A stretch of DNA of 64,000 nucleotides from a virus: positions 64,001 through 128,000 of IMG/VR virus record IMGVR_UViG_3300014911_000001, one strand, 5' to 3'. Positions 3,727 through 12,052 of this stretch are shown here, piece by piece. Below the pieces are notes generated by a model, which saw only the letters and a program-made list of their open reading frames with translations, was not told the origin of the DNA and did not search any database. A program made the position numbers and the translations under genes. Each line of letters opens with the position of its first letter. The stretch's first letter is position 1.

Positions 3727-4095
3727 CTACACAAGTGACGGGCCGAGGGCATCCTCTATTTTGGGACGCCCATACTCAACCTTCCACCCATTTTTAGGCG
3801 GAAGGTTGCGGACCCACCAGTCATACCACTGGCGGTCCATCACCTTTATAAGTTTGGATCGCTTGAAAAACACAGCGATCCACTTCCTTCTTCCCCCAGA
3901 ACGAGGGGAGAAAAACCATATAATCTCATTGGGTCGCACCTTGCCTGTTTTAACAAGATGCGACCACTGCGACCCAGTATTCACATTCTGGGCCGCTAAA
4001 ATAAACTCGTAATGGTTGCGCCACCTTTCGATGGCGCTCTCCCCGGATAACAACTTGGGGAGGTTGATTCTCAAGAAGTTAGTTAATGATAACAT
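3727..4095 (-). CDS. hypothetical basic, Trp-rich protein
   Basis: Start re-called to MLSLTN after GAGGAGGTG SD. Confidence 0.7.
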   Translation of the reverse strand: MLSLTNFLRINLPKLLSGESAIERWRNHYEFILAAQNVNTGSQWSHLVKTGKVRPNEIIWFFSPRSGGRRKWIAVFFKRSKLIKVMDRQWYDWWVRNLPPKNGWKVEYGRPKIEDALGPSLV

Positions 4096-4119
4096 AATAC
4101 ACCTCCTCTTTTGGAGGTT

Positions 4120-4177
4120 GCCTGCCACTTTTACCCACAGATAAGGCGAGGCCGGCAGGCTTAACCCCGCCTTATCT
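4120..4177 (-). ncRNA. H-type pseudoknot upstream of RBS
   Basis: S1 AGAUAAGGCGGGGU/GCCUCGCCUUAUCU, loop UAAGCCUGCCG, S2 GCCUGCC/GGCAGGC. Confidence 0.75.
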
Positions 4178-4285: not shown

Positions 4286-4353
4286 GGAGGCCTCTTAGAC
4301 CCTCTGTCGAGGGAGCTCCAGCGCCACGCCAAGGCGGGCCTCCAGTGCTGGAG
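4286..4353 (-). ncRNA. HDV-like ribozyme fold, copy D
   Basis: P1 CUCCAGC/GCUGGAG, P2 GGAGGCC/GGCCUCC, P3 GCC/GGC, L3 UUGGCGU, P4 CCCUC/GAGGG, J4/2 UCUAAG. Confidence 0.8.
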
Positions 4354-4403
4354 TAGCCCCCGGCACGGGGGCTTCATTCTTTTTTCTCTCCACCTCCTTT
4401 CTA

Positions 4404-4440
4404 GCGGGATGAGCTAGCCCGGCCACCTAGCCCATCCCGC
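4404..4440 (-). ncRNA. 14-bp hairpin 3' of the RNAP gene; loop complementary to a 5'-UTR bulge
   Basis: GCGGGAUGGGCUAG/CUAGCUCAUCCCGC with loop GUGGCCGGG. Confidence 0.7.
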
Positions 4441-4457
4441 GGTTTAAGGTTTAACCT

Positions 4458-6857
4458 TTAATCGAGCTTCCAGAAGTTGAGCCAAAATTCGCGATCGGCA
4501 TTAGCAAGAGGATGAAGACCAGCAGGAGTTGTAATCCTAAGAAGCCGCGCGATTTCCCAGTTTCGCTTCCGACCAGTATGAAGTTCCACAAGAAATCTCA
4601 CATGAGATTCAAGTTCAGATTCGGTACCAGCAACAATTGCAAGGAAGTCGTTCTCAGCAACGGTAAGAGATTTCCAAGTGGTAAGAATTGCCTGAGGTTC
4701 AAACGCAGCAAGAAGTTTACGGAATCGCCGGTTGAGTCTCCGGAAGTTCCTAGTAAGAAGTATACGTAGCTCAGCAATCCTGCTGTTGAGGAAGCGCCTA
4801 CGCCGATCCAGTTCCCGTCTCCTATTTTTGAGGGTAGCCAGAGCATCGGATAGGGTATTAAGCCTAGGTAGCAGCCACTTTTCCATTTTCTGCCTCAGAA
4901 CTTCGTTTCTGATCCCAGATACTAGGAACCTGACTTTAGTTTCAGGTTTCGCATTAGCGAAGAGTCTCCGGCTCCGATTAACTACCGTATCAACCGCCGT
5001 CACTTTCTCCGCAAGAGCATTCACTTCATTTTCTATCTTCCGTATCCGAGAGAGCATCCGTCCAAACATGCGCCTCCTTATGCGATCCCACTTGAGGAAC
5101 AATGCCTTAACTTCTGGATCAATGGTGCCATCAGGAATAAGATCCTTAAGAGACCTAACTTCTGGCTCAGCAAACTTAACTTCAGGAATAAATTCAGCAA
5201 GAGGACCTGTCGGAGTTATGGCTGCTGGATCAGCTTTCGCGGTTCGGTTAGTGATCATTTGAGTAATAGTATCAAGCCTGGCAGTCGTACTCGCGAGTAG
5301 ATGCAGTCCCGCTTCTACCTCATGACGAAGCTCCGGTTCTTTACCATTAGCAAGATTCACCGCAGCTTGGAATAGCGCTCCAGCTTTCGCAATAAGATCC
5401 ACATTAATCTCAGTATCAGAAAGAAGCATCCTAGTGAAGCCAGCATCTGCCCGTGCGATCATCTCCTTCCCTAGCTCAATATTTTCCACTTCAGTACTAG
5501 GATCCATTCTCCACTTCCCGAAAGAGATTTCTTTTATCTTGCTTCGTATGCTATCGAAGAATTCCTTAGCAACAAGAGGCTCCTTGAAGACCTTGGATGC
5601 CGCGGCGAGAGCCACTTTGTCGCCATCGGCATCCCATCCGCTAGGCATATCTGCAGGGTGTACCAGAATCGCATGCGCACGATGGTCAACAATAATAGGA
5701 AGGATAAGAGTATCACCAGGCAAGATGGGCGACTTCTGTATGAGTAGGAGTTCTCCATCTTTCAGACCAAGCATACGTGCAATCACAGGAGGAATAACAG
5801 CAGTGCCGGGATGTGCATTCTGAAATCCCAGATAGAAGCCCGGGCCTAGTCTCAACTTCCGAAGTGCGATCTTTAAGTGGTCCAGAAGCACTCTCCGCAG
5901 GAAGCCTGCCTCCTTTATGAGGCCGAATTTCCGCAGAATATCAGCAGTCAGAGTCAGCACTGCACTAGGTTCATTGATCGGATCAGCGTTTTTAACAAGG
6001 ATATCAGCCGCTACCTCAGGATCAGAAAAACCATTAATAGCTTCAGCAATCTGCTCCTGAATCCGTTCAACAAACTCAGGCGCTGGATTAACATTCCATC
6101 CGAGTTTCCTTGGCAGAAGGAACCAGCGCGGCAGAGCTTGGCTGAGACTGATGCCACCCGCGAATACGGCACCAACCTCATGCAGCATGATGGTTCGCCC
6201 GAGTTCGAGTACGAAGCGCCGCCTCTTGATGAGTTTTGCGGTGTCAGCATCAGCGACGATATCAGTCCCTGTCTCTATCTCAGTAAGAACTTTATCAGCA
6301 AGAACCTCATCTCCCAGATACAACATCAGCCTCTGGAACCCGACTCTGCCGGGAAGAACTGGTACCGCTATCCCTTTCAGTCCAATAGCTGTAATCTTAA
6401 AACCACGTTTAATAAGAGCACGAGTTACCGCAGGGATATCAGCTTCTGTAGGAGCATGAGCACGCGCAACCAGCTCTGTAAACCTCTCGGACACGAAGAA
6501 AATTCCGTCTACACCCATTTTAGCATCGAGCTTGAGGCCGCGAACATCCACATTAGCCACTCGCTCAGGTTTAAAGTGCCAGCCCTTATTTGGGATCTCC
6601 GGAGTTGTCATCATCTGAATTCGCTTACCAGGAAGAGTTCTCAGATCAAATCCGTGATCGCCGAGGATATCTGCAATCACCTTATTAACCTTATCAATAG
6701 CAGAAGCAGGAACTACTCTAAAGACCCGACAATCAGGAACCATGGTTGGTTTCATTGGAAGATCAGAGTTCAGATCAGGATCAAATGCGAAGAAGACACT
6801 AGCACCAGCTTCAGCGAATAGAATAGCAAGAGGAGACTTCGGTATTCTTTCCATCAT
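4458..6857 (-). CDS. single-chain double-psi-beta-barrel RNA polymerase (YonO/cRdRP-like), ~799 aa
   Basis: Ordered motifs GVDGIFFVS (DG), GLKG (KG), IQKSP ([RK]xP) and catalytic GWDADGDK (DxDGD); start re-called to 6857 after AAAGGAGGTG. Confidence 0.75.
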   Translation of the reverse strand: MMERIPKSPLAILFAEAGASVFFAFDPDLNSDLPMKPTMVPDCRVFRVVPASAIDKVNKVIADILGDHGFDLRTLPGKRIQMMTTPEIPNKGWHFKPERVANVDVRGLKLDAKMGVDGIFFVSERFTELVARAHAPTEADIPAVTRALIKRGFKITAIGLKGIAVPVLPGRVGFQRLMLYLGDEVLADKVLTEIETGTDIVADADTAKLIKRRRFVLELGRTIMLHEVGAVFAGGISLSQALPRWFLLPRKLGWNVNPAPEFVERIQEQIAEAINGFSDPEVAADILVKNADPINEPSAVLTLTADILRKFGLIKEAGFLRRVLLDHLKIALRKLRLGPGFYLGFQNAHPGTAVIPPVIARMLGLKDGELLLIQKSPILPGDTLILPIIVDHRAHAILVHPADMPSGWDADGDKVALAAASKVFKEPLVAKEFFDSIRSKIKEISFGKWRMDPSTEVENIELGKEMIARADAGFTRMLLSDTEINVDLIAKAGALFQAAVNLANGKEPELRHEVEAGLHLLASTTARLDTITQMITNRTAKADPAAITPTGPLAEFIPEVKFAEPEVRSLKDLIPDGTIDPEVKALFLKWDRIRRRMFGRMLSRIRKIENEVNALAEKVTAVDTVVNRSRRLFANAKPETKVRFLVSGIRNEVLRQKMEKWLLPRLNTLSDALATLKNRRRELDRRRRFLNSRIAELRILLTRNFRRLNRRFRKLLAAFEPQAILTTWKSLTVAENDFLAIVAGTESELESHVRFLVELHTGRKRNWEIARLLRITTPAGLHPLANADREFWLNFWKLD

Positions 6858-6871
6858 ATCACCTCCTTTCC

Positions 6872-6998
6872 GCCGCGGATTTCGTTGCCCTCGGTGCGGC
6901 ACTCCGAGGGTCGCCGGGCTTCGAGCGTCATTGGTGCCAAGGCTGGCCATAGAATGAAGCCCGGAAATTCCATGGCCATGGCCGGGCGCCTCAGCACC
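6872..6998 (-). ncRNA. two tandem pseudoknots in the RNAP 5' leader
   Basis: PK-a: GGUGCUGAGGC/GCCUUGGCACC plus UGGCCAUGGAAU/AUUCUAUGGCCA, loop CCGGGCUUC pairs GAAGCCCGG. PK-b: CCCUCGG/CCGAGGG, loop GCCGC pairs GCGGC just before the SD. Confidence 0.7.
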
Positions 6999-7042
6999 TC
7001 TGCCCTCTTTTTATCCATTCTTTCTTACCTCCTTTATAAATA

Positions 7043-7121
7043 GAGGGACTCTTAGGCCCTTAGGCTATTGACCTAAGGGAGCCCCGGCGCCACGACAAGG
7101 CGGTCCCTCAAAAAGCCGGGG
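7043..7121 (-). ncRNA. HDV-like ribozyme fold, copy C
   Basis: P1 CCCCGGC/GCCGGGG, P2 GAGGGAC/GUCCCUC, P3 GCC/GGC, L3 UUGUCGU, P4 CCCUUAGG/CCUAAGGG, J4/2 CCUAAG; begins directly after the upstream UAA stop. Confidence 0.8.
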
Positions 7122-7589
7122 TTAACTCAATTTGACATCATTATTATCCTTCTCTTTCTTTATCCACTCTATCAATTCATCCACTAGGCGCTCCACATTA
7201 TAATCATCAATAATAAGAAGCGCCCTCCTGACCTTGTAGCCGAGCACCTCATGCGCTTTTAGCACATGCCTCGGCATCCAAGGCCAGGTCTCATTGTATC
7301 CCCCATTATATTTGATTTGGAGAAGGATTACCTCCTTCTTATGGGGGATACCAATGCTGACGTCGATTTTAAATACGACGTCAGCTTTACTCCCGATAGG
7401 ATAGTCTATTAATTTCCATCCCGCCGGAAGCTTGGAGGATAGTTCTTCAATGAATCTATCCTCCGCTTCGAAGCCAGCTCTATGCGCCTCATGTGCGATA
7501 GAGCTAACCTCGAAATCCGGGCGGATTATTTCATGACATTCCGCCCAGAATTTTCGCGCTATAGTGCGGGCATGCGTTTCCATATCCAT
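7122..7589 (-). CDS. hypothetical protein, possible PD-(D/E)xK nuclease fold
   Basis: G.EAE...D...KID...LLQIK pattern; SD present. Confidence 0.5.
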   Translation of the reverse strand: MDMETHARTIARKFWAECHEIIRPDFEVSSIAHEAHRAGFEAEDRFIEELSSKLPAGWKLIDYPIGSKADVVFKIDVSIGIPHKKEVILLQIKYNGGYNETWPWMPRHVLKAHEVLGYKVRRALLIIDDYNVERLVDELIEWIKKEKDNNDVKLS

Positions 7590-7601
7590 GGTTGCCTCCT
7601 T

Positions 7602-8177
7602 TTACTCGACAAGAACATGATATATTCCATTTATTTTCTTTACTTTCCTTACTCTAAATAAACATTTATCCACAATTACTTCCTCTTCTTCACAATAAGG
7701 TTGCAAATTCAACAATCTCCCCTCTGCTTTAGTCATAAATACAACAGGAACTACATCAGGAAAATTATATCCTTCCCACAAATCCGGGTCATCAAACTCG
7801 TTATCATAACTTCTCTTTTTTCAAATTGCGAAGCGCTTTGCAACTGCATAACGCCTCGTCCAACTCATATTGATAGATATTTTCCTCCCTATCTGAGGGA
7901 TAGCATATACAACATCCCCTCTGAATAATAGTGATCTTACCTTAGGACACCCTAATAACGATATTTTTAAGGCGAGCTTAGAAATATAGATACCTCTCCC
8001 CTTCCACATTCTCAGCAAAGCGATCCTATTGTCTTTTGAAAATATCCCGCACAAAATTCTCAGCTTTTTCAATAACAGCTTGTATTTCATTTGGAGATGG
8101 TTCAGCTTTATTTCCCAACTCCTGTAAAAAACATTCCTTTTAGGATCTTTAATGAATAACGAAATGACCCACCACAT
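7602..8177 (-). pseudogene. ~191-codon ORF interrupted by one in-frame TGA at 7821-7823
   Basis: The frame continues KKRSYDNEFDDPDLWEG...HVLVE to TAA at 7602, next to the following SD. Confidence 0.6.
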
Positions 8178-8193
8178 TGTTACACCTCCTTTT

Positions 8194-8299
8194 GCCCGTA
8201 TTAGTTTACCAAGGGCACCATCTGACCTGCGGGCATTGATCAGACGGTGCCTATGTTACAAAACGGGCACCGTATAGTCATGGTAACAATACGGTGCCC
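8194..8299 (-). ncRNA. two tandem H-type pseudoknots upstream of RBS
   Basis: GGGCACCGUAU/AUACGGUGCCC with loop UGUUAC pairing GUAACA; GGCACCGUCUGA/UCAGAUGGUGCC with loop GCCCG pairing CGGGC. Confidence 0.7.
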
Positions 8300-8318
8300 T
8301 CACAACATCCCCTTTTAT

Positions 8319-8396
8319 TAGGGTGCTCTTAGACCCTTAGGGATTGGACCTAAGGGAGCCCCTCCACCACGTCAAGGTGGCACCCTATCGGAGGGG
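8319..8396 (-). ncRNA. HDV-like ribozyme fold, copy B
   Basis: P1 CCCCUCC/GGAGGGG, P2 UAGGGUGC/GCACCCUA, P3 ACC/GGU, L3 UUGACGU, P4 CCCUUAGG/CCUAAGGG, J4/2 UCUAAG. Confidence 0.8.
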
Positions 8397-8449
8397 TAGC
8401 AAGGCCATCATGTGAGGCCTTGCTTTGGCTTGGGCGGCACCTCATCATC

Positions 8450-8746
8450 TTACACATAAAAGCGATCCAACCCCTCAATATGAGGGGTTGTTTTGCTCTC
8501 CCTATCAACGATGTACAAGTTAGTCCCTATCCGAAATATGTCATGATACTTACACGCCTCCGGCTCCACAATAAGCTCTGCATCCTCAGGTATATATCCA
8601 ACCCATCCTTTGTACAAGCACCTCCGCACTAAGACATGAGTAAAACAGCTGGAATCAACAAGTGTAAGTCTATCATCATCATCATCGTAAATTCCGATAT
8701 ACCAGTAGTTATCTCTCACCAAGACTTTAATGACTTTTACCGCCAC
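8450..8746 (-). CDS. hypothetical protein (98 aa)
   Basis: GTG start at 8746 after AAAGGAGG; the upstream extension in the ORF track is structured RNA. Confidence 0.7.
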   Translation of the reverse strand: MAVKVIKVLVRDNYWYIGIYDDDDDRLTLVDSSCFTHVLVRRCLYKGWVGYIPEDAELIVEPEACKYHDIFRIGTNLYIVDRESKTTPHIEGLDRFYV

Positions 8747-8760
8747 GATAAACCTCCTTT

Positions 8761-8820
8761 CGCCGCACCTCAGTTCAGCCCCCGACACGCATGCGGTGCG
8801 GCATTTACATACGTGTCGGG
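8761..8820 (-). ncRNA. H-type pseudoknot abutting the SD
   Basis: S1 CCCGACACGUAUG/CAUGCGUGUCGGG, loop UAAAUGCCGCACCG, S2 GCCGCACC/GGUGCGGC. Confidence 0.8.
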
Positions 8821-8836
8821 ATGCCGCCCAAGCCAT

Positions 8837-8907
8837 CGGACGCTCTTAGACCTAGCCACAAGGCTAGGAGCCCCTCCACCACGTCAAGGTGGCGTCCGTC
8901 GGAGGGG
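8837..8907 (-). ncRNA. HDV-like ribozyme fold, copy A
   Basis: P1 CCCCUCC/GGAGGGG, P2 CGGACGC/GCGUCCG, P3 ACC/GGU, L3 UUGACGU, P4 CCUAGCC/GGCUAGG, J4/2 UCUAAG. Confidence 0.8.
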
Positions 8908-8956
8908 TAGCAAGGCCATGCGAGACCTTGCTTTGTCTGCGGGGGCACCATGAATA

Positions 8957-9190
8957 TTATAACTCTGATGGACGGGGCCTCTGTAACGATTCAAAATATA
9001 GCGATAAAGCCTCCATGAATGTCACAGGAATCCCTTTTTTCTTATACTGGAATGGAGGCGCCGGAACATTACCCAGCACCTCCTTTGTTATTTTTATTGC
9101 AATGTAACCTCTAAGTTCCTTAAACCGGTATGTCTTGATTTCACCATTATTATAAATGGTGATAGCATTCACGTTTTTTGACATCCTCAT
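8957..9190 (-). CDS. hypothetical protein, first gene of the leftward operon
   Basis: AAGGAGG SD, 77 aa. Confidence 0.7.
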   Translation of the reverse strand: MRMSKNVNAITIYNNGEIKTYRFKELRGYIAIKITKEVLGNVPAPPFQYKKKGIPVTFMEALSLYFESLQRPRPSEL

Positions 9191-9206
9191 TTTATCCTCC
9201 TTTTTC

Positions 9207-9266
9207 GCCGCGCCTTGGTTCTACGCCCAGCATGTACGCGGCGCGGCATTTACGCACATGCTGGGC
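9207..9266 (-). ncRNA. H-type pseudoknot abutting the SD
   Basis: S1 GCCCAGCAUGUGCG/CGUACAUGCUGGGC, loop UAAAUGCCGCGCCG, S2 GCCGCGCC/GGCGCGGC; covaries with 8761-8820. Confidence 0.8.
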
Positions 9267-9544
9267 TGGCGCCCCCGCAATCCCCTATTAGCCGAGGAAG
9301 CAAATCAAAAATCAAGGGGGCAGGGGGGTCGAAATACAATCCGACCCCCTCAAAATCCACAATAGAGACCTCCTGAATTTTTTGCCGATTTCTTGACCCT
9401 TATGGACCTCCCTGTAGACTCATTCCGACGGGGTACCTTGCGGCATAGGGAGGTGTTCTATGAGGTTGTTGGTTGGACTGGATATGGGCTTGTGATGGTT
9501 ATTGTGTTAGGGTCTGGGGGGTGTGGGACCTCTTGTGGGCTTGT

Positions 9545-9720
9545 TTGTGACTATGTGGGTTGGTGTGGGCTACCCCTTTTCGACCCTATGGGTCTGCTCT
9601 CTATAAGGCTTCCTGCTTCAGCGAGGGATAGCTAGGCTTATGTGAAGCCCCCGCCAGAGCCCTCTCCACAGGCATAAGTTCGGGCCGCCCCGGCCCTACC
9701 ACCCGTGAGGTGGGTGAGCC
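9545..9720 (-). ncRNA. TnpB omega-RNA (reRNA) scaffold plus putative guide
   Basis: GGGGCGGCCCGAAC..GCCUGUGGAGA..UCGCUGAAGCAGGAAGC..GGGGUAGCCCAC matches the IS200/IS605 right-end RNA pattern; the guide would start at 9564 (ACCAACCCACAUAGUCACAA). Confidence 0.8.
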
Positions 9721-9759
9721 CATTTTTTGTGATGTATGTTGTGTGTATGTTAGCATTTT

Positions 9760-10203
9760 TTATATACCTGTGCTACCGAATCCATTTTGGTTGCGTGTTG
9801 TGGGTGTTACATCATTGACAGGTTCGAATTCGCATGGATGTATTCGTGATATTATTATTTGGGCTATTCTATCGCCGTCTTTTATGGTAATGTTTTTGTT
9901 ACCGAGGTTGATGAGGATGACCATTATTTCGCCTCTGTAGTCGCTATCTATGGTTCCTGGTGAGTTAAGGACCGTTAGTCCGTGTCTGAGTGCTAGTCCA
10001 CTTCTTGGGCGGATTTGTGCTTCGTAGTTGTTGGGTAGTTCTAGTATGAAGCCGGCCGGTATGGCTTTATATTCACCCGGGTGTAGTGTTATGGGTTTTT
10101 GGAGTCTTGCGAAGATGTCGTAGCCTGCTGAACCCGGGGTCATTTTTCTTGGCATTGTACCGCCGGGCAGAAGTTTTAGTTTGATTTTATTAGTGTTACT
10201 CAT
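9760..10203 (-). CDS. dut: dUTPase (trimeric)
   Basis: SAGYDI, RPRSGLA, GTIDSDYRGE, GDRIAQ, RNQNGFGSTG; exact start uncertain. Confidence 0.95.
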   Translation of the reverse strand: MSNTNKIKLKLLPGGTMPRKMTPGSAGYDIFARLQKPITLHPGEYKAIPAGFILELPNNYEAQIRPRSGLALRHGLTVLNSPGTIDSDYRGEIMVILINLGNKNITIKDGDRIAQIIISRIHPCEFEPVNDVTPTTRNQNGFGSTGI

Positions 10204-10432: not shown

Positions 10433-10824
10433 TTTATCTCCTTATTGTTTTTATCGTTGAAATATGTTTTTCTAAATTCCTCTAGGATAGGTTCATCACC
10501 TGTACCATAGAGGACGGCGTGCATCCATTCAGTTACTTGATCTGCTGTATGGTGTGGAAATACATCCTTCATGCATCCGAAGTATTTTTGCCAGTTGGTT
10601 GGTTTAGGTTTTTTATGTTCTTTTATAGTCCATTTTTTGGTAGCTGTGGCGGATCCGTAGGTTGTGAGGATGAGGCCTATAATTATTATTATTATGGTGT
10701 ATGTAGTGGGATTATTGGTGTAGTGGTGGAGGAGGAAGCCGGCCGCAGTGGTAAGGAGGCCCCAGAATCGTTTGCTTTTCCAGAAGGGTTTGGTGTTATT
10801 ATTGTTATTATCGTGTGTGCTCAT
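10429..10824 (-). CDS. membrane protein, holin-like N-terminus
   Basis: KPFWKSKRFW followed by two TM segments. Confidence 0.55.
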   Translation of the reverse strand: MSTHDNNNNNTKPFWKSKRFWGLLTTAAGFLLHHYTNNPTTYTIIIIIIGLILTTYGSATATKKWTIKEHKKPKPTNWQKYFGCMKDVFPHHTADQVTEWMHAVLYGTGDEPILEEFRKTYFNDKNNKEIK

Positions 10825-12052
10825 TTTGGATCTCCTTTATGTTATGAAGCCCGCGCTTCAGTATATTAATACTTGCATTATAATCTCTATCGAGGGTTGC
10901 ACCACAGAACGGACATTTATGTATACGATCGTGGAGTGATTTGGGTACCTTATGTCCACATGAGGAGCATGTCTGCGTAGTATATGCTGGGTTAACCTTG
11001 ATGACCTGTGAGCCGTGAAGCCGCGCCTTGTAGGATGTTAGATTGATAAGTGTGTTCCATCCTGCATCGTAGATGTATTTAGAGAGGTGAAGCCGGCGGC
11101 GCTTGCTTACAAGATCACGTATTTTTATATCCTCGAATATAATAATATCATAGTTAGTAGCAAGCTGGTGTGAGATATGATGGAGGAAGCCGCGCCGCAT
11201 GTTAGCTAATCGTTCATGGAGTCTGGCTAGTTTACGCCTCTGTTTCATATAATTAGCACTCCCTCGCTGCTTGCGCGAGAGCTGTTTTTGTACACGCTTT
11301 ATACGTTTTTCGAGTTTGGTGATGAAGCGCGGGTTAGATACAATATTACCATCACTTGATACGATGAGATTCGTAAGCCCGAGATCTATACCGATGATGC
11401 GCTGCTTATTATTAGTATCGATAACGATAGTAGCGTCATTATTATTGGGTACTTCAACTGTTACATATACATACCATCTACCGCTGGGATGTCTTTTTAT
11501 AGTAACATTTTTGGCTTTAGTCCAGTCGATGGGTCGGTGAAGGCGGATTTTTAAGCCGCCGAGTTTGGGTAAATGAATATATGCGAACTTATCATTCAGT
11601 TTCTCAAATTTAATGACAGGATACCCATCCGGATAGTTTTTATGAGTCATCCAAACTTGTGGATATGTAAGTGATAGATATTGATCAGGTTTTTTGGGTT
11701 TAGGCGGACTTATATGTCCTTCTTTATTCCTGATGGCTACAAAGAAACGCTTATATGCCCAGTCAATCTTATCAATTATAGCCTTTAAGACACCTGAATA
11801 AACGAGCCTTAAGGCAGGTTCCTCTCTTTTAAATGCGGTTAGGTTACGTTGCCTCTCAAATTTTGTAGGGGTTCTATGTTCTTCATCCCATATACGTCTG
11901 TATTCATTTATTTCGTAATTATAGAACCAGCAGAGGATGGACAGCCAGTTTTCTAGTTTGTATTCTTGTAGTGTTGTTGGATAGGCTCTGAATTTGTAGG
12001 TGAGGTAGGAAGCCGCCGCCTTATCAGTATTTTTTGATCCCTGTTTATTCAT
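10808..12052 (-). CDS. tnpB: IS200/IS605-family TnpB RNA-guided endonuclease (no TnpA nearby)
   Basis: YKFRAYPT, RuvC-I GIDLG, RuvC-II FEDI, TTQTCSSCG/CPFCG zinc finger, RuvC-III DRDYNASINIL. Confidence 0.95.
   Translation of the reverse strand: MNKQGSKNTDKAAASYLTYKFRAYPTTLQEYKLENWLSILCWFYNYEINEYRRIWDEEHRTPTKFERQRNLTAFKREEPALRLVYSGVLKAIIDKIDWAYKRFFVAIRNKEGHISPPKPKKPDQYLSLTYPQVWMTHKNYPDGYPVIKFEKLNDKFAYIHLPKLGGLKIRLHRPIDWTKAKNVTIKRHPSGRWYVYVTVEVPNNNDATIVIDTNNKQRIIGIDLGLTNLIVSSDGNIVSNPRFITKLEKRIKRVQKQLSRKQRGSANYMKQRRKLARLHERLANMRRGFLHHISHQLATNYDIIIFEDIKIRDLVSKRRRLHLSKYIYDAGWNTLINLTSYKARLHGSQVIKVNPAYTTQTCSSCGHKVPKSLHDRIHKCPFCGATLDRDYNASINILKRGLHNIKEIQNEHTR

Follow-up and report, generated by a model that had tools for sequence, protein, structure and literature searches.

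The window analysed here, a 64,000-nucleotide stretch of the 175,796 bp (~176-kb) genome of a myovirus-like phage, raises the question of what four copies of one compact RNA fold are doing between the protein genes of an operon in the non-structural nucleotide-metabolism arm of the phage, and whether a fold of HDV type with two exchanged base pairs in its core could still cut RNA. We propose that the four elements are probably cis-acting self-cleaving ribozymes, a variant subclass with the HDV fold, that would cleave a polycistronic mRNA just ahead of each gene on its 5′ side. The copies lie as follows.

8907-8837, minus strand: candidate ribozyme copy A, predicted cut A8908/C8907, 44 bits, outside the covariance-model seed
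8396-8320, minus strand: candidate ribozyme copy B, predicted cut 8397/8396, 56 bits
7121-7043, minus strand: candidate ribozyme copy C, predicted cut 7122/7121, 37 bits, outside the covariance-model seed
4353-4286, minus strand: candidate ribozyme copy D, predicted cut 4354/4353, 48.5 bits

The pattern CTTGNCGTGG-N8-CTC-N{6,36}-CTAAGAG matches exactly four times, at these sites and always on the minus strand, with 0 matches expected from 100 shuffles, and a covariance model (R1) whose seed left out copies A and C finds all four and no others in the whole 175,796-bp genome. The preliminary description had placed the elements at the same positions, except that copy B ends at 8320 and not, one base further, at 8319. 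All four are intergenic, follow protein genes and lie on the gene strand, and ARAGORN finds no tRNA in the 64-kb window, in agreement with the earlier claim that the elements separate protein genes. Copy C had also rightly been said to begin at the first base past a UAA stop, as its base 7121 directly follows the TAA (7124-7122) of ORF 7589-7122. An ORF crossing copy D (4377-4180) was rejected as a real gene, its frame and protein not being conserved among relatives. Megablast of 8.1 kb of the locus against deposited phage genomes gave no match.

The four copies share one layout: P1, J1/2, P2, C, P3, L3, J1/4, P4, J4/2, G, A and the 3′ strand of P2 (P2′). P1 has 7 bp throughout (CCCCTCC/GGAGGGG twice, CCCCGGC/GCCGGGG and CTCCAGC/GCTGGAG) and is followed by a J1/2 of 2-5 nt, a 7-bp P2 of different sequence in every copy, the C, a 3-bp P3 (RCC/GGY), the 7-nt L3 UUGNCGU, CU as J1/4, a P4 hairpin of 5-8 bp and YCUAA as J4/2. 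The G after the CNAA of J4/2 pairs with the C preceding P3, and the two also covary. The A between this G and P2′ is kept in all window copies, and is the conserved bulged A of P2 to which the preliminary description had drawn attention. In an alignment of 14 sequences, each from its own contig, 95.9% of cells are paired and no more than 48% once partners are slid; the rows had been selected for a perfect P1 and for 5 bp or more in P2, which accounts for part of the percentage. In the same 14 sequences double changes occur at 15 of the 19 pairs, and the covariation score of 0.866 compares with at most 0.19 in controls and is reached by none of 500 shuffles. Covariation in P1, P2 and P3 supports a nested double pseudoknot in the order P1-P2-P3-P3′-P1′-P4-P2′, which is that of HDV-type ribozymes, and P4 covaries between the window copies and a close relative, contig L006. 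The HDV register and the compensatory changes in all of P1-P4 that had been claimed from the four copies are thereby borne out, with compensation in every helix between the copies and across the 82 family members described below. A control with the 3′ strand of P1 reversed still gave 29 ‘perfect’ P1 helices and was set aside, being confounded by P1 strands that are pyrimidine-rich on one side and purine-rich on the other; the slid partners and the table of four L3-J1/4 combinations were used in its place.

What sets the elements apart is the core. Position 1 is a C paired to G (C1-G37), replacing the G1•U37 of the HDV family, and P1.1 is reversed, with G22 of L3 facing C38 of J1/4 in place of C22-G38, as had been noted for the window copies and as is found in each of them. 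At the second P1.1 position U stands opposite U. The two swapped pairs are stacked and lie beside the predicted cut site. Of the 82 members, 79 have C1-G37 and the other three U1•G37; none has the G1•U37 wobble. When matches are sorted by their L3 and J1/4 bases, a perfect P1 accompanies L3 G with J1/4 C in 13 cases, all with C1-G37, and L3 C with J1/4 G in five, all with G1•U37, against 0/35 for C/C and 0/19 for G/G. These exclusive combinations support a P1.1 pair in the predicted fold, and the two swaps always co-occur among family members. The positions expected to matter for catalysis are otherwise those of HDV: P3 has 3 bp, and the 7-nt L3 has U first and C-G fifth and sixth (the U20/G25 positions), UUGNCGU being present in 82/82 members selected with search patterns that fixed most of these bases. 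The J4/2 cytosine at the catalytic position, followed by N-A-A, was assessed in a sample unconstrained at J4/2, taken from loci of a scan with that C replaced by A, G or U; C-N-A-A stands directly 5′ of P2′ in 18/18 of its members. The scan was rejected as a count of false positives, as it had caught true members with the real CNAA further upstream.

The G1•U37 wobble beside the scissile phosphate is treated as a requirement in HDV-type ribozymes and as part of their metal site. In HDV itself it has been reported to be specifically required (PMC1874588), so a ribozyme with a Watson-Crick C1-G37 pair might cleave slowly or not at all if the coupled P1.1 swap did not make up for the change. The base at -1 in the family is mostly A, which would be a poor choice by the HDV preference of U>C>A>G (PMC1874588).

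The family extends well beyond this phage. Parsing of phage and metagenome contigs gave 82 unique members, which have 56 distinct P1 and 67 distinct P2 sequences. It is mainly viral: among unique G37 matches a perfect P1 is found in 13/23 from viral contigs, 58/91 from metagenomes and 3/119 from prokaryote genomes, one of these an artefact. Matches in the prokaryote genomes are mostly chance, with only L156 and L249 looking real and the third perfect P1 (L250) rejected as an artefact at a contig end; two giant-virus MAG matches of the first pattern (L002 and L005) were likewise rejected as chance, having neither P1 nor P3. Most flanking ORFs are co-oriented. In 44 of the 82 members a hairpin is predicted that ends 0-3 nt short of the cut site, and about one in three has a motif like a Shine-Dalgarno (SD) no more than ~30 nt downstream, so that both are frequent and neither is universal. 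Arrays number four ribozymes in the source phage, five in a relative and eight in an unrelated phage, and the genes next to those of unrelated phages are ordinary ones, an ATPase among them; an exonuclease lies nearby. The array of eight (contig L333) occupies 10 kb on one strand, with seven flipped copies and one canonical, and every slot has the same layout of hairpin, ribozyme, and box-Shine-Dalgarno-ATG. The canonical copy is recognised by RF02682 (33.7 bits, E 2.7e-5) and RF00094 (31.8 bits, E 0.0015). Because flipped and canonical copies fill the same slot, a functional equivalence of the two is supported.

The flipped copies themselves are passed over by existing models. Rfam returns no HDV family for the whole window at the gathering threshold, nor for 5 kb at E<=10. 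In a search of 91 nt, RF02682 aligns copy A end to end (positions 1-74) with P1, P3, L3 and J4/2 in register, at 11.1 bits, much less than the gathering score of 44. The core string does not occur in the part of the supplementary tables of Kienbeck et al. 2024 available to us (PMC10879173), and a literature search covering few subscription journals gave nothing relevant for the string or for a described flipped variant. Within these sources the earlier suggestion of a new HDV-like subclass stands, as neither Rfam nor the theta-ribozyme sets include it, and the checks it had called for gave a covariance model that finds the four copies, no Rfam match at gathering and the 82 phage and metagenome members. 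The flipped core is thus supported, at the level of sequence, as a subclass of HDV-like ribozymes unmatched in Rfam and the literature searched.

With HDV proper (RF00094) and the F. prausnitzii HDV-like ribozyme (RF02682) the copies share the nested double pseudoknot, the 7-bp P1, the 3-bp P3 and a 7-nt L3 ending in CGU, but differ in having C-G for G1•U37 and in the orientation of P1.1. Their J4/2, CUAAG(A), matches the RF02682 consensus GCUAAGA, their L3 aligns with its UCUaCGU, and the antigenomic ribozyme has, as C19-G80 (PMC2175327), the equivalent of their pair joining the C ahead of P3 to the G that follows CUAA. Theta ribozymes occur in Caudoviricetes (tailed phages), the same type of host (PMC10879173), and have the same frame, P1(7)-J-P2-RCC-U-NN-NCGU-GGY-P1′-NN-L4-CNAA-P2′; in the theta rows available to us one reads P1, J, P2, ACC, U, CC, ACGU, GGU, P1′, GG, L4, CUAA and P2′, and G is the first base, C stands at the second P1.1 position of L3 and G is first in J1/4, against C1-G37 and G22-C38 in the flipped class. 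The flipped class also includes forms without P4 (L333, L380 and L430) and at least one member on a tRNA 3′ end (L424), as in theta. The window copies, unlike theta ribozymes, which lack P4 and cut within ~5 nt of a tRNA 3′ end, have a P4 of 5-8 bp and no tRNA neighbour and form an array between protein genes. A further 526 matches listed by Kienbeck et al. lie away from tRNAs, mostly in non-coding regions, and are of unknown function (PMC10879173). Several self-cleaving ribozymes in one phage-type gene cluster are known in bacteria for hammerhead, twister, pistol and hatchet, and the processing of polycistronic transcripts has been suggested for hammerhead and twister, so that the idea is not new (PMC6765202). 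The flipped class differs from these clusters in ribozyme class, in its regular array of hairpin, ribozyme, leader and gene, and in a predicted cut that would leave the ribozyme on the downstream mRNA.

The surroundings of the copies in the window are listed here.

8910-8931, minus strand: 8-bp hairpin then UA, directly 5′ of cut site A, read from the sequence
8399-8423, minus strand: 8-bp hairpin then UA, directly 5′ of cut site B, formed in the MFE and centroid folds
4355-4373, minus strand: GC-rich 8-bp hairpin then A, directly 5′ of cut site D, read from the sequence
8820-8835, minus strand: 5′ arm, starting one base past ribozyme A and pairing with 8441-8426
8426-8441, minus strand: 3′ arm, just 5′ of the hairpin preceding ribozyme B
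8746-8819, minus strand: leader, with a hairpin loop GCCGCACC that pairs with GGUGCGGC
8450-8746, minus strand: 98-aa ORFan between ribozymes A and B, no Pfam/PHROG match
7122-7589, minus strand: 155-aa ORFan ending at ribozyme C
4458-6854, minus strand: 798-aa ORFan between ribozymes C and D
3727-4128, minus strand: 133-aa ORFan downstream of ribozyme D

GGUGCGGC sits just 5′ of the Shine-Dalgarno of ORF 8746-8450, and leaders homologous to this one lie at 9190-9267 and 6854-6935. The cassettes have a fixed layout (arm, leader, ORF, arm, hairpin, ribozyme) around unrelated ORFans, and the close relative L006 has one extra cassette of 349 nt between copies A and B. A scan for promoters and terminators between the ribozymes gave nothing above chance. 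Copies A and B have the same P1 and the same flanking hairpins, ORF 8177-7821 contains a degenerate remnant of the 3′ part of ribozyme B, and a TnpB gene lies 1.9 kb upstream and is not flanked by ribozymes.

In the model that we favour, the cutting, the chemical nature of the ends and the consequences for stability and translation are inferred as follows. One leftward polycistronic RNA from the non-structural module would carry all four ribozymes, each of which would fold co-transcriptionally and, with the J4/2 cytosine as general acid, cut immediately 5′ of P1. The upstream product would end in a stable hairpin and 1-2 bases with a 2′,3′-cyclic phosphate, hairpin 8910-8931 for example becoming the 3′ end of the upstream RNA, and the downstream product would begin with a 5′-OH and carry the compact ribozyme, the leader, the Shine-Dalgarno and the gene. 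Single-gene (or few-gene) mRNAs with defined, exonuclease-resistant ends would result, their stability and translation uncoupled from those of neighbouring genes. RNase III processes the early polycistronic mRNA of phage T7, and synthetic ribozyme insulators exist; both act between genes, leave hairpin 3′ ends and uniform 5′ leaders, and uncouple neighbouring genes. The array would be their natural counterpart, with the difference from T7 that the RNA itself would cut and no host enzyme would be needed for the cut. The role of self-cleaving ribozymes in bacteria and phages has long been a question, and regular intergenic arrays, in which a hairpin is predicted to stay on the upstream RNA and the downstream mRNA to keep the ribozyme, allow the idea of mRNA processing to be tested directly. 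C-G together with a reversed P1.1 in a large natural subclass offers a ready-made double-mutant cycle for the role of the wobble, flipped elements may serve as natural compact insulators for operon design, and surveys of phage ribozymes would undercount because current descriptors and Rfam models miss the subclass.

Against this model may be set a structured RNA that does not cleave, its double pseudoknot kept as a compact 5′-UTR module after catalysis was lost through the swapped core, which might stop 5′-3′ exonucleases, act in ribosome loading or translation, or bind a phage protein. A translation role has been proposed for the R2 and L1Tc HDV-like ribozymes, and an IRES-like one for HDV-like folds (PMC6765202); the elements often stand shortly before a Shine-Dalgarno and start codon, their Rfam scores are low, and the wobble reported to be required in HDV (PMC1874588) is missing from all 82 members. 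We nevertheless consider this reading unlikely, as the C and A-A of J4/2 kept in 18/18 of the unbiased sample and the invariant U...CG of L3 are positions that matter for catalysis and not just for helices, one such slot of the L333 array is taken by a canonical HDV ribozyme that Rfam recognises, and the L424 member on a tRNA 3′ end is in the processing context of theta ribozymes. That the repeats reflect chance or a repeat artefact with no RNA function has negligible probability: the common P1 and flanking hairpins of A and B are the only point for it, and it is already refuted by the shuffles with 0 matches, the L3-J1/4 combination table and the compensatory changes in every helix, between copies and across 82 members of unrelated contigs.

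Very unlikely, in our judgement, is a view of the ribozymes as primarily parts of mobile or shuffling cassettes, in which the repeats mark small selfish ORF modules and spread them by recombination or through RNA intermediates, the cutting of RNA being of more use to the cassette than to the expression of phage genes. Eukaryotic HDV-like ribozymes do free retrotransposon RNAs (PMC6765202), and the extra 349-nt unit of L006, the ribozyme B remnant within ORF 8177-7821 and the constant layout around unrelated ORFans would fit; yet the cassettes have no linked reverse transcriptase, integrase or recombinase, TnpB stands apart without flanking ribozymes, the arrays of unrelated phages have ordinary genes such as the ATPase as neighbours, and gain and loss of cassettes is an expected by-product of any repeated sequence. 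An extension of the processing model, which we regard as unlikely, is that units of the window lineage close on themselves into circular, exonuclease-proof, translatable mRNAs and, separately, that the coupled swap represents an HDV active site without the G•U wobble metal site. Here a 12-16-bp arm 1-3 nt past each ribozyme would pair with an arm 5′ of the next upstream hairpin, docking the 3′ end of the unit (hairpin-UA with cyclic phosphate) on its own 5′ ribozyme in the geometry of the precursor, and joining would proceed by reverse HDV-type ligation or by a host ligase of RtcB type. Long-range arms were rejected as a feature of the whole class, being confined to the small cassettes of the window lineage. 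The pairing of 8820-8835 with 8426-8441 spans 16 bp and scores 20.7 against a null maximum of 13.4, I12 within these arms is 14 nt with 100% complementarity, and relatives have arms at the same positions with a different sequence.

The pattern CTTGNCGTGG-N8-CTC-N{6,36}-CTAAGAG has four matches on the minus strand of the window as against none in 100 shuffles, and these fall at the same places at which the preliminary description had located its four elements:

8907-8837, minus strand, HDV-like ribozyme copy A
8396-8320, minus strand, HDV-like ribozyme copy B
7121-7043, minus strand, HDV-like ribozyme copy C
4353-4286, minus strand, HDV-like ribozyme copy D

As read from the sequence, the copies share a layout that runs, 5′ to 3′, through a 7-bp P1, a J1/2 of 2-5 nt, a 7-bp P2, a C, P3 (RCC/GGY), L3 (UUGNCGU), the 3′ strand of P1, J1/4 (CU), the P4 hairpin, YCUAA, G, A and the 3′ strand of P2. 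All four helices P1 to P4 change sequence among the copies and remain complementary, in keeping with the covariation first claimed for them. The first base of every copy is C with G as its partner, and position 3 of L3 is G opposite the C of J1/4, so that both the C1-G pair and the reversed P1.1 of the preliminary description are read in all four. Copy C does begin at the base directly 3′ of a TAA stop codon. The source record, an IMG/VR virus rated complete, contributes bases 64001-128000 to the window, and across its 175,796 bp a covariance model built here (R1), with copies A and C left out of the seed, and a loose pattern each recover copies A-D only.

The nested double-pseudoknot geometry proposed for these elements is that of HDV. 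Copy A can be aligned to positions 1-74 of the Rfam model RF02682 (F. prausnitzii HDV ribozyme), and although the score is only 11.1 bits the two are in register throughout P1, P3, L3 (UCUaCGU in the model, UUGACGU in copy A) and J4/2 (GCUAAGA and UCUAAGA). The same frame, P1-J-P2-ACC-U-CC-ACGU-GGU-P1′-GG-L4-CUAA-P2′, is found in the tables of Kienbeck et al. for theta ribozymes, minimal HDV-like ribozymes of tailed phages. A counterpart of C19-G80 in the antigenomic HDV ribozyme (PMC2175327) is provided by the G that follows CUAA: its partner is the base preceding P3, and the base after this G is left out. In a sample with no constraint on the true J4/2, C-N-A-A immediately precedes P2′ in 18/18 members.

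The departure from HDV lies in two neighbouring pairs that change together. We scanned the four combinations of C or G at L3 position 3 with C or G at J1/4 position 1, and picked out the matches in which P1 was perfect over 7 bp and correctly spaced. L3 G with J1/4 C gave 13 perfect-P1 matches, every one C1-G37, and L3 C with J1/4 G gave five, every one G1•U37; one of these five is located at the 3′ end of a tRNA, the rest behind a hairpin and two bases (CA or AA). A perfect P1 accompanied neither L3 C with J1/4 C (0/35) nor L3 G with J1/4 G (0/19). The exclusive occurrence of the G/C and C/G combinations shows that a P1.1 pair is formed, with its orientation coupled to that of the cleavage-site pair beside it. 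Since HDV is described as having a specific requirement for G1•U37 (PMC1874588), the flipped class is outside the HDV family as presently defined. It is matched neither by Rfam nor by the theta descriptor, and searches of Rfam 15, of the theta-ribozyme data in text form and of part of the literature did not turn up the variant.

The suggestion of a new HDV-like subclass is further upheld by scans of IMG/VR and JGI/ENA metagenome contigs, in which the patterns fixed parts of the core only and left P1 and P2 free. After parsing these yielded 82 unique members with 56 distinct P1 and 67 distinct P2 sequences, including P4-less forms, arrays and five copies on a 147-kb contig (L006) from a close relative of the window phage. 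The same pattern in prokaryote genomes gave a perfect P1 in 3 of 119 matches, one of the three being a script artefact, and matches there are almost only chance. In an alignment of 14 sequences with a gap-free 5′ half, 95.9% of cells are paired as against at most 48% with slid partners, a percentage that is in part built in, since only rows with a perfect P1 and at least 5 bp in P2 were taken. This selection does not account for the slid controls or for the compensatory changes: changes on both sides occur at 15 of 19 pairs, the covariation score is 0.866 as against at most 0.19 in controls, and the C before P3 covaries with the G after CNAA.

On an unrelated phage contig of 41,951 bp (L333), a stretch of 10 kb holds eight ribozymes in the same orientation, seven flipped and one canonical, each with a GC hairpin upstream. 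At L333 1-10100 (plus strand) the conserved box (A)CC(C)GAUGCAA lies a few bases after all eight and is followed by an SD sequence and ATG. The canonical member has G1•U37, L3 UCCCCGU, J1/4 GG, L4 GUAACG and J4/2 CCAA, and two Rfam models align with it from end to end, RF02682 (33.7 bits, E 2.7e-5) and RF00094 (31.8 bits, E 0.0015). On another contig (L424, 5895-5965, minus strand) a flipped member starts right after a tRNA-like 3′ end (..GGTTCGAATCCTGCAGCCCCT^C), so that the flipped subclass is also present in the setting in which theta ribozymes are known to trim tRNAs. The mixed array and this tRNA-adjacent member provide comparative evidence for an equivalence of the flipped class with working ribozymes.

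We propose a model in which each ribozyme would most likely cleave the nascent polycistronic transcript at the 5′ boundary of the ribozyme itself. A hairpin ending in a cyclic phosphate would be left on the upstream mRNA, and the downstream mRNA would begin with a 5′-OH and the folded ribozyme, followed by the leader, the SD sequence and the gene. Both types of end should withstand exonucleases and 5′-end-dependent decay, and every gene would gain a context-independent leader. The same role in polycistronic processing has been put forward, though without proof, for hammerhead and twister ribozymes of bacteria (PMC6765202).

The host genome of copies A-D is that of a tailed, myovirus-like phage. 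Its plus strand bears terminase, portal and sheath genes from ~36 kb on, and its minus strand ribonucleotide reductase, dUTPase, RNase H, a TnpB gene and numerous ORFans. The copies occupy intergenic gaps of the minus-strand block among ORFans of 77, 98, 118/155, 798 and 133 aa, and a search for tRNA genes across the window found none, in agreement with the earlier view that the ribozymes here separate protein genes. Copies A, B and D each follow an 8-bp hairpin, with one or two bases between it and the predicted cut. A consensus scan for promoter and terminator signals between the elements found none above chance.

Arms of 12-16 bp, which begin 1-3 nt 3′ of a ribozyme or close to where the transcript presumably starts, pair with a partner just upstream of the next hairpin:

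8820-8835 with 8426-8441, arm pair enclosing a single small ORF
9268-9279 with 8938-8949, arm pair enclosing a single small ORF
units of L006, arm pairs enclosing single small ORFs

Three distinct arm sequences occur at the same positions, their pairing scores are far above those of shuffles, and the arms are paired in both MFE and centroid folds of the excised unit (unit z-score -5.35). They are confined to small cassettes of the window phage and its close relatives and are no part of the ribozyme class, since neither long units nor other lineages have them. The arms keep open a more unusual reading, in which the ribozyme-delimited units would be closed or circular mRNAs.

Three homologous leaders are found in this operon only:

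9190-9267, minus strand, leader
8746-8819, minus strand, leader
6854-6935, minus strand, leader

In each, a hairpin loop (..AAAUGCCGCNCC..) pairs with the nucleotides that immediately precede GCGGCG-AAAGGAGG and the start codon. The stems covary, as does the pseudoknot (GCC/GGC, ACC/GGU and, in L006, GGU/ACC), and the hairpin-pseudoknot may be a translational operator.

A decayed second copy of ribozyme B's 3′ end, together with the AGGGGATGTTGT box downstream of it, lies at 7908-7946 (minus strand) inside ORF 8177-7821, and suggests past recombination at the ribozyme repeats. In L006 a further cassette is inserted between A and B. Ribozyme A has a complete TnpB gene (OrfB_IS605/Cas12f-like; 10808-12052, minus strand) 1.9 kb upstream. 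The dUTPase gene and the operon are separated by ~460 nt (9300-9760, minus strand) that have no convincing ORF and are partly A/C-rich with GC-rich hairpins; at ~9320-9345 (minus strand) a terminator-like hairpin is followed by a possible promoter, TTGATT...TAATAG, seen by eye and absent from the consensus-scan list. The gap from ribozyme B to the first codon of ORF 8177 has two GGCACCG/CGGTGCC hairpins (8210-8300, minus strand), and these, together with the related GGTGCCCCC in the arm preceding ribozyme A, look like a local repeat family.
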